Shown here in pieces: positions 17 through 7,291 of a DNA stretch of 16,775 nucleotides. The notes under the pieces were generated by a model. It made no database searches and had not been told where the DNA came from. It saw only the letters and a list, made by a program, of their open reading frames with translations. The translations under genes were made by a program, and so were the position numbers. Source of the DNA: Promethearchaeota archaeon (GTDB taxonomy: Archaea > Asgardarchaeota > Lokiarchaeia > Sigyniarchaeales > SOKP01); contig JBHLNT010000086.1 of NCBI GenBank assembly GCA_048941265.1, positions 1 through 16,775 on the forward strand. The letters are read 5' to 3'. Position 1 is the stretch's first letter; every line of letters begins with the position of its first letter.

Positions 17-1474
17 ATGTCTGATATTTTCACAAGAAATATAAGTAATTCTGATTTATTATGGCGTGTTAGAGCTTATGTTATAGGATTTCTTTTAGCA
101 GATGGGACAATTAGAACTTATCCTTATGAAATAAGTGCAACTCAAAAAGAACAAGATAAAGAGATTTTATCAGAAATTCAAAAAGCGTTAGGGGGTAAAA
201 TTAATGGTCCTGATGAAAATAACAAATATCATTTAAATGTCTTTAATAAAGAATTAGTTTTAACATTATTCGATTTTGGAATGGTACAGGCACATAGTAA
301 GGAAGAAATTGCATCAACAATCTATCCTCCGGACTTTATACAGAATAGAATTTTTGGGCAAACTTTGATAAGAGACTTTATTAGAGGCTTTTATGATGGT
401 GATGGATGGTTTACTGGCTCTTTTTCCAGAGGGGATACTAGCTTTAAAATAATTGGACCATTTAATTTTTTAAATTCACTTAAACAACTTGTATTAATTG
501 AAGTACCTGGATTAACTTCTTTCATAACAAATGAAAGAAAACAATATTTCATAATTGGTGATCAACAATATCAATTGTTTTCTAAATTTACCATATATCA
601 AAGAAGTTATGGTTTCTATCGTTTAAGTCCATTGGACTTAGAAAAAGGAGAAATAGTAACCTTAGATCATCCATGGTTAAAAATACTTCATTTTGGTGGT
701 AATTTGAATGCAATTCGACTATTTAATTGGCTTTATGAAGATGATGATAAATTTGATAAATTTGATATCCAGGGAATAAAAATTTGCGGAAAAAGGAAAT
801 TCGAAAAAGCGCTCAATGAACTTGGAAATGCTAGATTTCGCAGTGAAAGATTAGCCCCAGACTGGAAGGATATGCTGTATGATACCATATTGCAAATGCA
901 ACCTCGATTTTATAAAACACACGAATTAATTGAGTTATCAAATACGATTCTATGGGAAAAATTAGAATTACATGATCTAATTAATTTATATGAAATGAAT
1001 AAAATCCATAATAGGGACAAATTTGTTGAAAGACTAAAATTTCTTGAATATTTGGATAATGTAATAGTTTCATATCGTTCAGGAAGAGAGAATTATTATT
1101 ATAGCAAAGTATGTTCTTCAATAGAGATACCTCCATATTTAACAAAATATATAGATTTAATAGATAGAAATGGAATAAAACAAAATTTAAAAAATTTAAT
1201 AGTATTAATTCTCATTGGAAATTACATGAAATTTAATGATCTTTTAAATGAAATAAGAAATAAAGGAATTTTTCATGAACATGGACTTTATTCCAAAAAT
1301 ATAAAGTTATCTTTAGCTCAACTAAAATCATTTGATATCGTTATTGTTGATGATGAAGAAGAGAAGTTCGAAAACCAAAGTTTCTTCTTAAACACATCAG
1401 TTTTAAATAAATATTATAAAATGAATATACTAAAATTAAAGAAAGAGTTAACTAGTCTCTTTTATAAAATTTAA
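17..1474 (+). CDS. Free-standing two-motif LAGLIDADG homing-endonuclease-like protein with long C-terminal extension (possible winged-helix domains)
   Basis: 485-aa ORF. Two LAGLIDADG helices, AYVIGFLLADG and RDFIRGFYDGDG, about 100 aa apart, both with the terminal acidic residue. GGAG at 2-5 upstream. No intein splicing motifs at the termini. Confidence 0.85.
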   Translation: MSDIFTRNISNSDLLWRVRAYVIGFLLADGTIRTYPYEISATQKEQDKEILSEIQKALGGKINGPDENNKYHLNVFNKELVLTLFDFGMVQAHSKEEIASTIYPPDFIQNRIFGQTLIRDFIRGFYDGDGWFTGSFSRGDTSFKIIGPFNFLNSLKQLVLIEVPGLTSFITNERKQYFIIGDQQYQLFSKFTIYQRSYGFYRLSPLDLEKGEIVTLDHPWLKILHFGGNLNAIRLFNWLYEDDDKFDKFDIQGIKICGKRKFEKALNELGNARFRSERLAPDWKDMLYDTILQMQPRFYKTHELIELSNTILWEKLELHDLINLYEMNKIHNRDKFVERLKFLEYLDNVIVSYRSGRENYYYSKVCSSIEIPPYLTKYIDLIDRNGIKQNLKNLIVLILIGNYMKFNDLLNEIRNKGIFHEHGLYSKNIKLSLAQLKSFDIVIVDDEEEKFENQSFFLNTSVLNKYYKMNILKLKKELTSLFYKI

Positions 1475-1510
1475 CTAATTATATAAAAAAAAGAAAAAAT
1501 TGAATTTAAT

Positions 1511-3520
1511 TTAACCTATTTCTACATCCATTTTCTTACGCTCTTCAAGAAGAGAATCAACAACAGAGGGATCTGCTAATGTTGTCACATTTCCAATATC
1601 TGTTCCAGAAGCGATTGCCTTCAAGATTCTTCTCATAATCTTTCCACTACGCGTTTTAGGCAAATCATCAGCAAATTGGACGACATCTGGCTGAAAAACA
1701 GGACCAATTTCTTGTCTCACATGCATTATTATATCCCGTTTCAATTCTACTGATTTCTCAACGCCTTGAATTAATGTTACAAACGCCCAAATGGCTTGAC
1801 CCTTAATTTTGTGAGGAAATGGTGCCACTGCTGCCTCGGCAACTTTAGGATGGCTCACAATCGCAGATTCAACCTCCATAGTTCCGATTCGATGTCCAGA
1901 AACCTTTATAACATCATCAAGTCGTCCTAAAATCCAATAGTATCCATCCTCATCTCGGCGTGCTCCATCACCCGTATAATAATGTCCTGGATATCTCTCA
2001 AGATAGGTTGATTTAAATCGCTCAGTATCACCCCATACATCTCTTAGCATTCCTGGCCAAGGTTTTGCGATGCAAAAATATCCACCTTCGTTTGGTTCTG
2101 TTACCTCATCACCCTCCAAGTCAAAAATTACAGGTTTAATACCAAAGAACGGAAAACAACATGAACCTGGTTTAGTAGGTGTAGCAGTTGCTATTGGTGT
2201 CATAATAAATCCCCCTGTCTCTGTTAGCTAATAATTGCGAATTGCAACCATTTTTTGCCAGTATGTATCGACAATGGGGCATTTTCCTTTTCCAACGACC
2301 CTATGATACCAAGTCCAAGCCTCGGGATTTATTGGTTCTCCCACTGTGCCTAGGACTCGAATAGAGCTAAGATCATGCTTATTTACAGGTTCTTCACCAT
2401 AGCGCATTAAAGCTCTTATAGCTGTCGGTGCAGTATAGAATTGCGTGACCTTATGCCTTTCTACAATATCCCAAAATCTATCTACTGCGGGATAGGTGGG
2501 TACGCTCTCGAACATTAGTGTTGTAGCACCGTTCGCTAAAGGACCGTAAATGATGTAGCTATGTCCAGTAATCCATCCTATATCGGCAGTACAGTACCAG
2601 ATATCGCCGTCCTTATAATTAAACACAACTCTATGCGTAAATGAAGTGTAAAGGATATATCCCGCTGTAGTGTGTTTAACTCCTTTAGGTTTTCCGGTTG
2701 TTCCGCTGGTATATAAGATGAATATTGTATCTTCGGAATCCATCTCTTCGCACTCGCAATCCTCGTCCATTCCAGCTATAAAATCGTCGTACCAGATATC
2801 TTTGGATGTACCCGATACTTCATTCCCGGTGCGTTTTACTTTTATTACATGTTCTATGGTGGGAATATCATCTATAATCTGGGCGACATCGGCCATTTTC
2901 GGGTATGTCTTTCCCGCCCTAACGGTTTCATCGCTTGTAAACAAGAGCCGCGAATCAGAATCTTCGATTCGGTCTTTAACCGCTTCTTTAGAGAAGCCAC
3001 CAAACACTATCGAATGGATTATTCCTAGTCGGGCGCACGCTAACATTATGATGGCCAATTCAGGAAGCATCGGGAGCCAGATAGTTACTCTATCACCTTT
3101 CTTCAGCCCTAGCTTTTTCATTCCGTTGGCGACTTTACAGACTTCTTTTTTAAGTTCGTTGAAAGTGAATTTTCTTACCTCTCCGGGTTCATCTGCTTCC
3201 CAGATGAGAGCAATATGTTTCCCTTTTCCCTTTTTGATATGCCGATCGATGCAATTATAACATATATTCAGTTTTCCACCAACAAACCACTTACCAGGAA
3301 ATAAATCTGTTTTCTCCCAGACTTTATCATATGGTTTAAACCAATCTATAGATTTTGCTTGTTTATCCCAAAATCCTTCCATATCGTCGATACTCTGTTG
3401 CCATAGTTTTTTATACTCTTTAAATGACATTCCAGTTTTAGCGTATTTTGGATTTAAATCCTTAGGATCAAATATACGGGTTTCAGTAAGGATAGATTCC
3501 ATTTTATCTTCTTCAGACAT
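1511..3520 (-). CDS. acs: AMP-forming acetyl-CoA synthetase (acetate-CoA ligase), interrupted by a 30-nt insertion carrying an in-frame TAG; 659 aa if the insertion is removed
   Basis: ORFs 2228..3520 and 1511..2203 share one frame. Motifs: FILYTSGTTGKPKG, ADIGWITGHSY, GTVGEPINPEAW, YYTGDGA, GRLDDVIKVSGHRIG, PKTRSGKIMRR. The junction reads DTYWQ-KMVAIRNY*L-TETGGFIMTP. Deleting 30 nt restores DTYWQTETGG (2010-30=1980 nt). Confidence 0.93.
2226..2255 (-). other. 30-nt insertion in acs; candidate BHB/BHL-type archaeal mRNA intron
   Basis: Minus-strand RNA AAAAAUGGUUGCAAUUCGCAAUUAUUAGCU (boundaries can slide by 1-2 nt). Internal stem UGGUUGC/GCAAUUA. Junction 4-bp helix CUGG/UUAG, each strand followed by CA^A and CU^A. 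Flanking exon stem CCCCAUUGUC/GACAGGGGG. The insertion is certain from the sequence; splicing is inferred. Confidence 0.55.
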
Positions 3521-6496: not shown

Positions 6497-7291
6497 ATGA
6501 AATTTAAATATACAGATTATCACGTTCATACAAAATGGAGCCATGATATTAAGGAGTTTGGCCCATCTTTCGAGGGATATTTAAATATTGCAGAAAAAAA
6601 TAAGATTAACATCTGTTTTTTGGATCATTATGAGTTATATTATATTGAAAATGACGAGACATATCCATTTTATGATGGCAAAATAGAACAATATTTAGAT
6701 GAAATTGAAAAAGTTAAAGCAACATATGATTTTGTGTTAAGTGGACTTGAAGTCGACTATTACACTGATTATCAAGTAAAACTTCGAGAATTTATGGATG
6801 ATTATGGAAAAGACTTCGATTTTATAGCAGGAACTCTCCATTAGCCAGATATTGGTCTACCTGTAACTAATAGACATAAATTAGTTGAGCTTCTTGAAAA
6901 AAAGGGAGTAAAACAAGTTGTCGATAATTTTTTTGATGTATCTGAAGAGATGATTAGATCTCAAATCTTCCAGAATATCTGTCATTTAGATACTATATAT
7001 CGCTATATTAATATAAGAGATTTAGTACCTACCTTTGATACAGATGTTTCAGACGAGCGAGTGTTAAATCTGGGAAGACTCTGTATAAAGTACAATATAA
7101 ATATAGAATATAATCTTTCAGGATTAAAGTTTCCTATTAAAAGACCATTTCCGTCTAAATCTGTAATTACGCAATTAAAAAAGGAAGGGGCTAAAATATT
7201 CGTAGGATCTGATAGCCACTCCATTAATTACTTTCGAACAAGTGTCAACAAAGTAAAGAAAGCTTATAAATTTTTAAATAAAATTAATTAG
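6497..7291 (+). pseudogene. PHP-domain histidinol-phosphatase (HisJ/HisK)-family gene with one internal in-frame TAG at 6842-6844 (nonsense allele, sequence error or read-through)
   Basis: ORFs 6497..6844 and 6950..7291 are in frame and joined by 35 open codons (PDIGLPVTNRHKLVELLEKKGVKQVVDNFFDVSEE). PHP motifs intact: DYHVHT, DH, GLEVDY, GTLH, CHLD, EYN, GSDSH. 264 codons in total. Confidence 0.8.

Follow-up and report, generated by a model that had tools for sequence, protein, structure and literature searches.

LAGLIDADG homing endonucleases cleave both strands of DNA at a specific target of 14–22 base pairs (bp). In collaborative homing, as outlined in a portion of PMC6083498 after Zeng, Bonocora and Shub (2009), the endonuclease F-CphI works together with a group I intron in psbA of cyanophage S-PM2. 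Here we describe a gene for a free-standing LAGLIDADG protein that lies tail-to-tail with acs, the gene for acetyl-CoA synthetase (an AMP-forming acyl-CoA synthetase), which is itself interrupted by a 30-nucleotide (nt) intron of the bulge-helix-bulge (BHB) type. Both lie in a 16,775-nt stretch of DNA from an Asgard archaeon (hereafter, the window), which is the entire contig C18 (JBHLNT010000086.1) of genome G000, a 5.0-Mb assembly of 361 contigs with 30.5% G+C; its relatives bear names such as 'Promethearchaeota archaeon'. An earlier note on this DNA, made from the sequence alone, had proposed that the pair might form a collaborative homing unit, the enzyme cutting intron-free acs alleles at the conserved YWQTETGG codons and spreading together with the intron. 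The explanation that we consider the best, and hold with moderate confidence, is a mobile endonuclease cassette at the 3' end of acs, with introns that are not obligately tied to it and are exchanged by recombination.

The likeness to F-CphI and psbA, going by the same portion of PMC6083498, lies in a free-standing endonuclease gene adjoining a gene with an intron that has no open reading frame (ORF), and in the proposed logic, whereby the intron prevents self-cleavage and gains mobility. The enzymes differ, however, F-CphI being Endo VII-like and the one here LAGLIDADG, and so do the introns: that of psbA is a self-splicing group I intron, whereas that of acs is a 30-nt BHB intron predicted to be spliced by the host. 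The phage setting likewise contrasts with an archaeal chromosome, on which the gene stands beside intron-less alleles as well, and on which cleavage is predicted. In the trans homing of mobE and I-TevIII of phage T4 (from sections of PMC2790892), a free-standing endonuclease acts through co-conversion to spread adjacent DNA, an intron included, but there the enzyme is of the HNH family, the host a phage and the intron of group I.

Mobile endonuclease ORFs (mORFs) of fungal mitochondria carry in a C-terminal gene end of foreign origin, which takes the place of the native one, as in atp6 of Allomyces and atp6, atp9, cox2 and nad3 of Glomus (excerpts of PMC3630166). The locus described here resembles them in having a LAGLIDADG ORF at the 3' end of a conserved gene and a duplicated 3' end, in copies that differ mostly synonymously, and, clearly so in G019, in a native-like copy that resembles those of close relatives; it departs from these cases, as far as the excerpts describe them, in that the ORF lies on the other strand, with no in-frame fusion, that most displaced fragments are unlinked or kilobases away, and that it belongs to an Asgard archaeon. 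The introns have a counterpart in that of the cbf5 pre-mRNA of Crenarchaeota (PMC2738675, in part), likewise a BHB intron of tRNA type in a protein-coding gene that relatives have gained and lost; gene and phylum are different, and the case here adds at least nine positions, up to six introns per acs and an association with an endonuclease to what that part reports. As for the protein, the archaeal intron-encoded I-Tsp061I (2dch) shares fold, motifs and host domain. Enzymes of its type reside inside BHB introns of rRNA and measure about 200 amino acids (aa), whereas the one here is free-standing and carries a further C-terminal region of about 250 aa, and some of its relatives also have an N-terminal extension of about 500 aa.

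The endonuclease ORF occupies positions 17–1474 (+ strand) of the window and is open for 485 aa. Its stop codon ends at 1474 and that of acs (3520–1511, − strand) starts at 1511, so that a 36-nt spacer (1475–1510) separates the two convergent stop codons; the insert in acs (2224–2253) lies 750 nt from the end of the ORF. The earlier note had reported an intact two-motif LAGLIDADG ORF convergent with acs, 36 nt from its stop and about 750 nt from the insertion, and these coordinates bear it out. Homology between the window and G001, a genome without the endonuclease, begins at 1482, 8 nt beyond the ORF's stop. The spacer is thus homologous to the 3' flank of the G001 acs from that position, which places the cassette boundary at about 1475–1482. 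An unrelated membrane-protein gene takes the place of the ORF in G001. The ORFs downstream of acs in that genome were considered as decayed endonuclease genes, and this was rejected after examining them.

Both LAGLIDADG motifs are intact. The first, YVIGFLLADG (aa 21–30; positions 77–106, + strand), carries the acidic residue D29, and the second, FIRGFYDGDG (aa 121–130; positions 377–406, + strand), the acidic residue D129. Both are present in an alignment of 19 family members, in which D29 and G30 of the first and G128, D129 and G130 of the second are at least 90% conserved. The Pfam family LAGLIDADG_3 (PF14528) matches aa 18–58 (E-value 5.5e-7), and generic two-motif LAGLIDADG proteins match aa 17–165 with E-values of 1e-11 to 1e-5. 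An AlphaFold model (mean predicted local distance difference test score, pLDDT, 90.5) has the pseudo-dimeric alpha-beta-beta-alpha-beta-beta-alpha fold. A Foldseek search with this model returned 78 PDB matches at E <= 0.001, and among the matches listed all are LAGLIDADG enzymes, inteins or a maturase. The best is I-Tsp061I (TM-score 0.55 on the target), followed by intein endonucleases, the I-OnuI family and the maturase bI3. These structural matches span only the first ~230 residues, the nuclease core (aa ~1–230); the C-terminal extension (aa ~240–485), of conserved helical and beta-hairpin character, is as well conserved as the nuclease half, identity over the whole 485 aa being 39–81% in the 19-member alignment, and scans of Pfam and NCBIfam gave no family match to it. 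The gene is real, and the free-standing homing endonuclease that it encodes is probably active.

Some relatives have the N-terminal extension of ~500 aa mentioned above, which contains a zinc ribbon. The proteins of L091/L099 (G252) and P0018 are 63% identical over 978 aa, though their cores are only about 45% alike and belong to different clades. An N-terminal extension common to different core clades suggests domain shuffling within the endonuclease family.

Full-length relatives are few: 17 proteins among 5.8 billion clusters, and nine representatives at E <1e-30 among 1.84 billion. Within the phylum the gene was found in seven of 400 genomes, all of them in a single Lokiarchaeial family (f1), where it is present in one of ten genomes of genus g1 (G000 being among the ten), three of 54 in g11, two of 42 in g2 and the one genome of g7. 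Adding metagenome contigs to the genomes gives 17 distinct loci. At every one of the 16 that keep the 3' flank (the other, L066, is cut by a contig end) the endonuclease gene is convergent with a gene for an AMP-forming acyl-CoA synthetase; the partner is the acs orthologue at 15 of them and, in G015, a paralogue 39–44% identical to it. The tie between a free-standing LAGLIDADG gene and acs, which the earlier note had drawn from one locus, therefore extends across the family. Decayed copies occur as well, one (L060) being frameshifted, with nine stops when read straight through, and another surviving as a remnant in G019:C50, beside a fragment of an acs 3' end. The gene is thus optional at a fixed site, present or absent among relatives and in places decaying, and we are fairly inclined to regard it as a selfish cassette with a single address, tail-to-tail at the 3' end of an AMP-forming acyl-CoA synthetase gene.

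What marks this address further is a scatter of short duplicates of the acs 3' end, of 64 to ~280 nt. The last ~250 nt of acs in the window, with 29 nt of the spacer (1482–1762, − strand), recur at G000:C250:24928–25197; this copy has 90% nucleotide identity to the window acs (10% of bases differ), differs in one of 79 residues, and adjoins what remains of the gene found after acs in G001. G015 has a 64-nt copy of the paralogue's 3' end immediately past its endonuclease gene, and L066 has an acs 3' fragment 1.7 kb upstream of the endonuclease gene. All five of the acs-linked endonuclease-bearing genomes searched (G000, G019, G199, G224, G277) contain acs 3' fragments, there unlinked to the endonuclease. 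Of all the 3' ends compared with the fragment of G019, that genome's own among them, the nearest is the acs end of its relative G224, at 92% identity; the in-gene acs end of G019 is closest to that of G199, which has an endonuclease of the same clade. The fragments of G000, G001 and G199 are each most similar to the acs of the genome they come from (91–94%). Two features of the fungal mORFs, a duplicated 3' gene end and an endonuclease ORF at the 3' end of a conserved gene, are present here.

The extent of the linked tract can be read from a recombinant. The acs of G199 is 93–99% like that of G224 in windows starting at nt 1440–1560 and closer to that of G019 from about nt 1620, so the endonuclease-linked tract ends some 350 nt into acs from its 3' end, short of the intron. 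Taken with the fragments, this makes it reasonably likely that the endonuclease gene travels with the last ~250–350 nt of acs and leaves displaced acs 3' fragments behind. For G199 the picture of intron and endonuclease as one co-spreading unit fails. Paired fragments of acs 3' ends, about 1–3 kb apart, were seen in G210 (G210:C24:60181–60435 and 63088–63345), which has no endonuclease homologue, and in L078 (G199:C48); they may be relics of repeated invasions.

The interruption in acs consists of ten extra codons between YWQ and TETGG, in an otherwise open frame of 670 codons whose single TAG lies within them. Exon 1 (2254–3520, − strand) runs, as read from the frame, from the start codon to ...DTYWQ and the first base of the Thr codon; exon 2 (1511–2223, − strand), placed by frame and profile match, runs from TETGG... 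to the stop codon. A 30-nt insert is found at the same point in ten orthologues. The predicted fold of the window's insert (2224–2253, − strand) has a 9-bp helix h', a helix H of GGC(A)/(A)GCU, bulges AA|A and AA|C, and a helix h of CU/AG. This is the BHB motif, with 3-nt bulges 4 bp apart, and with the cut placed behind the second base of the bulge the exons join to read W-Q-T-E-T-G; in eight of the ten sequences the four central pairs include one A-A or A-G mismatch. On the ten-sequence alignment the proposed structure pairs 88.7% of 150 cells, compared with 31–47% when the partner columns are slid. Six pairs show compensatory changes, with 17 cells changed on both sides, and the covariation score exceeds that of all 500 shuffles. 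The boundary in the window is ambiguous by one or two bases and is fixed by the G255 and G265 alleles, in which only a cut by the BHB rule restores Q-T-E.

We rejected translation of the TAG as an amino acid, since ten residues would then interrupt the invariant YWQTETGG, which uninterrupted orthologues have without them, and since the frame is shifted by sister inserts 32, 33, 42 and 61 nt in length. A pseudogene or an assembly error was rejected on the covariation and on DNA contigs from three runs of one study, two of which may be the source sample, that bridge the insert without differences; the bridging evidence consists of metagenome contigs only, and the joints listed are for the most part noise contributed by related organisms. 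Judged by sequence covariation, the insert is a genuine BHB intron, as the earlier note had supposed in calling it a mini-intron. It would presumably be excised by the host's splicing endonuclease and RNA ligase, and G000 has two genes with the EndA domain of tRNA-intron endonucleases.

This intron is one of many. On the coding sequence of the G019 acs, mini-introns occupy at least nine positions (nt 940, 1036, 1042, 1084, 1193, 1197, 1268, 1431 and 1513), and single genes carry six (G282), five (G199) or four (G001 and G277). Those of G282 and G199 all fall within conserved motifs of the adenylate-forming fold, as assigned by eye; the six of G282 (L097, G282:C25) are at nt 940, 1036, 1084, 1197, 1268 and 1431, and the G199 gene is L073 (G199:C82). 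In the G015 paralogue an unrelated 61-nt intron, with a BHB that is perfect by eye (H = ACCG/CGGU, bulges AA|A), sits after YWQTE, 6 nt further on. It is confined to the endonuclease-bearing copy, and 20 other matches of that similarity class, three of them read in sequence, are uninterrupted. In the assemblies of G245, G271 and G199, contigs break inside acs near intron positions (~nt 940, 1310–1360 and 1513), which would fit strain-level presence and absence of introns within the sampled populations.

A third paralogue, acetoacetyl-CoA-synthetase-like (G000:C40:177–1652, L039), contains an insertion of about ten codons, a TAA among them, between ...SWMM and WNWL.... The insert recurs in seven genomes (G000, G002, G005, G006, G019, G020 and G021) and looks like another conserved 30-nt mini-intron. 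Whole-genome searches found no endonuclease homologue beside this paralogue.

The earlier note had suggested checking whether endonuclease and intron occur together across related genomes, and they do so above chance. The nt 1268 intron (codon 423, YWQ|TETGG) is present in four of six genomes with the endonuclease gene (G000, G199, G224 and G277; absent in G019 and G252) and in seven of 85 without it (G001, G005, G006, G255, G265, G280 and G282), a difference with a naive one-sided Fisher p of 0.0016. The 85 comprise 40 genomes of g11, 26 of g2, five of g1 and 14 of other genera; the count leaves out the fragmentary G257 and those g11 genomes whose match does not reach the site. Adding the metagenome loci L062, L064 and L065, none of which has this intron, gives four of nine (p 0.0098). 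For any acs intron the comparison is two of three against none of 40 in g11 (p 0.003), and one of two against five of 26 in g2 (p 0.39). Kin are not independent, so all these figures overstate the case. In the window, G224, G199, G277, L062 and G015 the endonuclease gene has as its neighbour a gene interrupted by an ORF-less intron, and endonuclease homologues stand beside an uninterrupted YWQTETGG in G019, L062, L064, L065 and G252. The balance of these counts favours introns that are enriched in endonuclease-bearing alleles without being strictly bound to the endonuclease; a causal tie between the two is putative.

The endonucleases form two clades, A and B, separated by a branch with a support of 97 in the Shimodaira–Hasegawa-like approximate likelihood ratio test (SH-aLRT). 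Clade A includes the window gene, those of G224 and G277 (beside acs, the three making up three genera) and that of G015 (beside the paralogue), and in all four of its loci of known state an intron lies in the YWQTETG codons. The same codons are interrupted at one of six clade B loci (in G199; not in G019, L062, L064, L065 or G252), and the two proportions differ with a Fisher p of 0.024. The intron of G199 beside a clade B gene is seen on a second contig of that genome. Within clade B, the sister endonucleases of L062 and G199 both stand beside an intron at nt 940. Over their first 840 nt the acs genes of G019, G199 and G224 are 90–100% alike, yet their endonuclease clades and introns differ, which speaks against simple vertical descent.

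Traces of exchange are visible within acs itself. The rate-normalised ratio of 3' to 5' divergence is 1.00 +/- 0.07 in 120 control pairs, with a maximum of 1.22, and reaches 2.34 (G224–G019), 1.92 (G277–G035) and 1.78 (G006–G009) in close pairs that differ by introns. One divergent patch, at about nt 1140–1400, is common to G224 and G199 and surrounds the nt 1268 intron; another, at about nt 900–1250, is specific to G199 and surrounds its four further introns. Because these patches overlap the intron sites, introns appear to have been gained or lost by recombination with diverged alleles. From about nt 1620 to its end, the acs sequence follows the endonuclease clade.

We therefore weigh four explanations. 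That of a mobile endonuclease cassette at the acs 3' end with introns not obligately linked to it is, in our judgement, somewhat the better founded, and it builds on what was observed directly: the enzyme's motifs and fold, the single address at which the gene sits, its patchy occurrence, the duplicated 3' ends, the mosaic tracts, the intron covariation and the enrichment. In an acs allele without the endonuclease, the enzyme would cut both strands within the final few hundred bases or close to them, and repair from the donor would copy the endonuclease gene along with ~250–350 nt of the donor's acs 3' end; the native 3' end would sometimes be left as a displaced fragment, as with the mobile endonuclease ORFs of fungal mitochondria. 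The acs introns would pass between genomes as short DNA tracts by homologous recombination. Several points weigh against this explanation. Nuclease activity, cut site and splicing are themselves predictions. The contig starts 16 nt before the endonuclease ORF, whose upstream flank therefore lies outside it, and a comparison of contig ends found no overlap between C250, which holds the displaced acs 3' fragment, and the start of C18, nor between C18 and any other contig end. The displaced fragments vary in length, are mostly unlinked to the endonuclease gene and do not pin down a cut site, and those of the endonuclease-less G001, G032 and G210 cannot be contig-end artefacts. Mosaic patches also occur between the intron-less G252 and G035, and the close pair G033/G026 has a ratio of 0.21, a skew in the opposite direction; recombination in acs is thus not confined to carriers of endonuclease or introns. 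The tree behind the two clades comes from a quick maximum-likelihood (IQ-TREE) search. The clade A pattern (4/4) agrees better with cleavage at the intron position than with cleavage at the 3' end.

That last pattern speaks for strict collaborative homing, in which, at least in clade A, the enzyme would cut intron-free YWQTETG, the BHB intron would split and protect the site, and both would spread together. Besides the contrast between the clades, the unrelated 61-nt intron found only in the endonuclease-bearing G015 paralogue, the restriction of g11 introns to endonuclease-bearing genomes and the nt 940 introns beside the L062 and G199 sisters point the same way. There is, moreover, no uninterrupted TGGCARACNGARAC site in the G000 genome, and the divergent exon tract of G224 and G199 is centred on the intron site, as in homing. 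Against this, the uninterrupted site of G019 matches the spliced G224 junction except for one flanking base, and yet an intact homologue lies beside it; G252, L062, L064 and L065 likewise have uninterrupted sites, the acs of G015 itself keeps its YWQTETGG uninterrupted, and in G199 a clade B endonuclease is paired with the intron. The intron is present in seven genomes that lack the endonuclease, introns at nine or more positions cannot all be a defence against a single enzyme, and the displaced fragments put the recombination joints in the last 60–280 nt of acs and not at nt 1268. The counts are small, the genomes related and the clade split a single branch. A strict, inseparable collaborative homing unit is not supported, because homologues stand by uninterrupted YWQTETGG, the intron outlives the gene, and the linked tract of G199 stops short of the intron; of the earlier proposal the enrichment and the clade A association stand, and the obligate pairing falls for part of the family. 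A looser form, in which clade A enzymes would cut the intron-free site and the intron would shield its carrier, is possible but not favoured; the clade pattern, the independent intron of the paralogue and the lack of an uninterrupted site in G000 agree well with it. If endonuclease and mini-introns instead had no causal link and met in acs because some lineages often exchange acs DNA, one would understand why in g2 introns are as common without the gene (5/26) as with it (1/2), why a third paralogue carries its 30-nt insert with no endonuclease homologue beside it, and why intron-less genomes show mosaic tracts; but the overall enrichment (p 0.0016, naive), the g11 counts, and a clade-specific pattern joined to an independent paralogue intron are hard to get by chance, and we think this account unlikely. 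The least probable by far is a domesticated, vertically inherited LAGLIDADG protein, for example a DNA-binding regulator of acs or an RNA helper. Conservation across the whole core, unnamed C-terminal half included, the constant position beside acs and the existence of LAGLIDADG maturases, with bI3 among the structural matches, would suit such a role, but the gene occurs in only seven of 400 genomes, with a patchy distribution inside genera, its clades disagree with the relationships of G019, G199 and G224 in the 5' part of acs, both catalytic acidic residues are kept, and one copy has decayed, with remnants besides.

Elsewhere in the window, genes for TFIIB and for an Arf/Gtr1-type GTPase are among the neighbours. 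A gene for a HisJ-family PHP histidinol-phosphatase-like protein (6497–7291, + strand) is split by one in-frame TAG (6843–6845) after ...AGTLH. A mini-intron was rejected here, as the read-through protein aligns end to end with TIGR01856 with no extra residues; the TAG may have arisen by nonsense mutation or by an error, or may be recoded. A scan of G000 for long frames split by one stop gave 172 cases, most of which, by eye, have a Met just after the stop and look like neighbouring genes. Three paralogues, on G000:C251, C301 and C350, have an in-frame TGA in a conserved ...DRxFPTDDCxI*... context, and these codons look like selenocysteine codons.

To our knowledge, introns in archaeal protein-coding genes have rarely been reported, and we know of no description of a free-standing LAGLIDADG cassette on a chromosome that substitutes a new 3' end for that of a gene. 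Our literature search found no paper on BHB introns in Asgard protein-coding genes, and a 2026 preprint on Asgard tRNA introns mentions neither LAGLIDADG nor homing. The family described here thus offers one metabolic gene with at least nine mini-intron positions beside a mobile endonuclease gene whose clades track particular introns, and, even without a causal link, a source of new rare-cutting enzymes. Were the link causal, it would provide a testable mechanism by which tRNA-type introns invade and persist in Asgard coding genes, and would extend collaborative homing from the group I introns of phages to host-spliced BHB introns. A more speculative possibility, which we put forward tentatively, is that each endonuclease lineage has a cognate BHB mini-intron that splits its own cut site (YWQ|TETGG for clade A, nt 940 for the L062/G199 subclade), each helping the other to spread. 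If this were true, acs would have taken up its introns, as many as six, at conserved motifs through round after round of such spread, and the process would drive intron gain at the level of DNA in the protein-coding genes of those archaea that are most closely related to eukaryotes.

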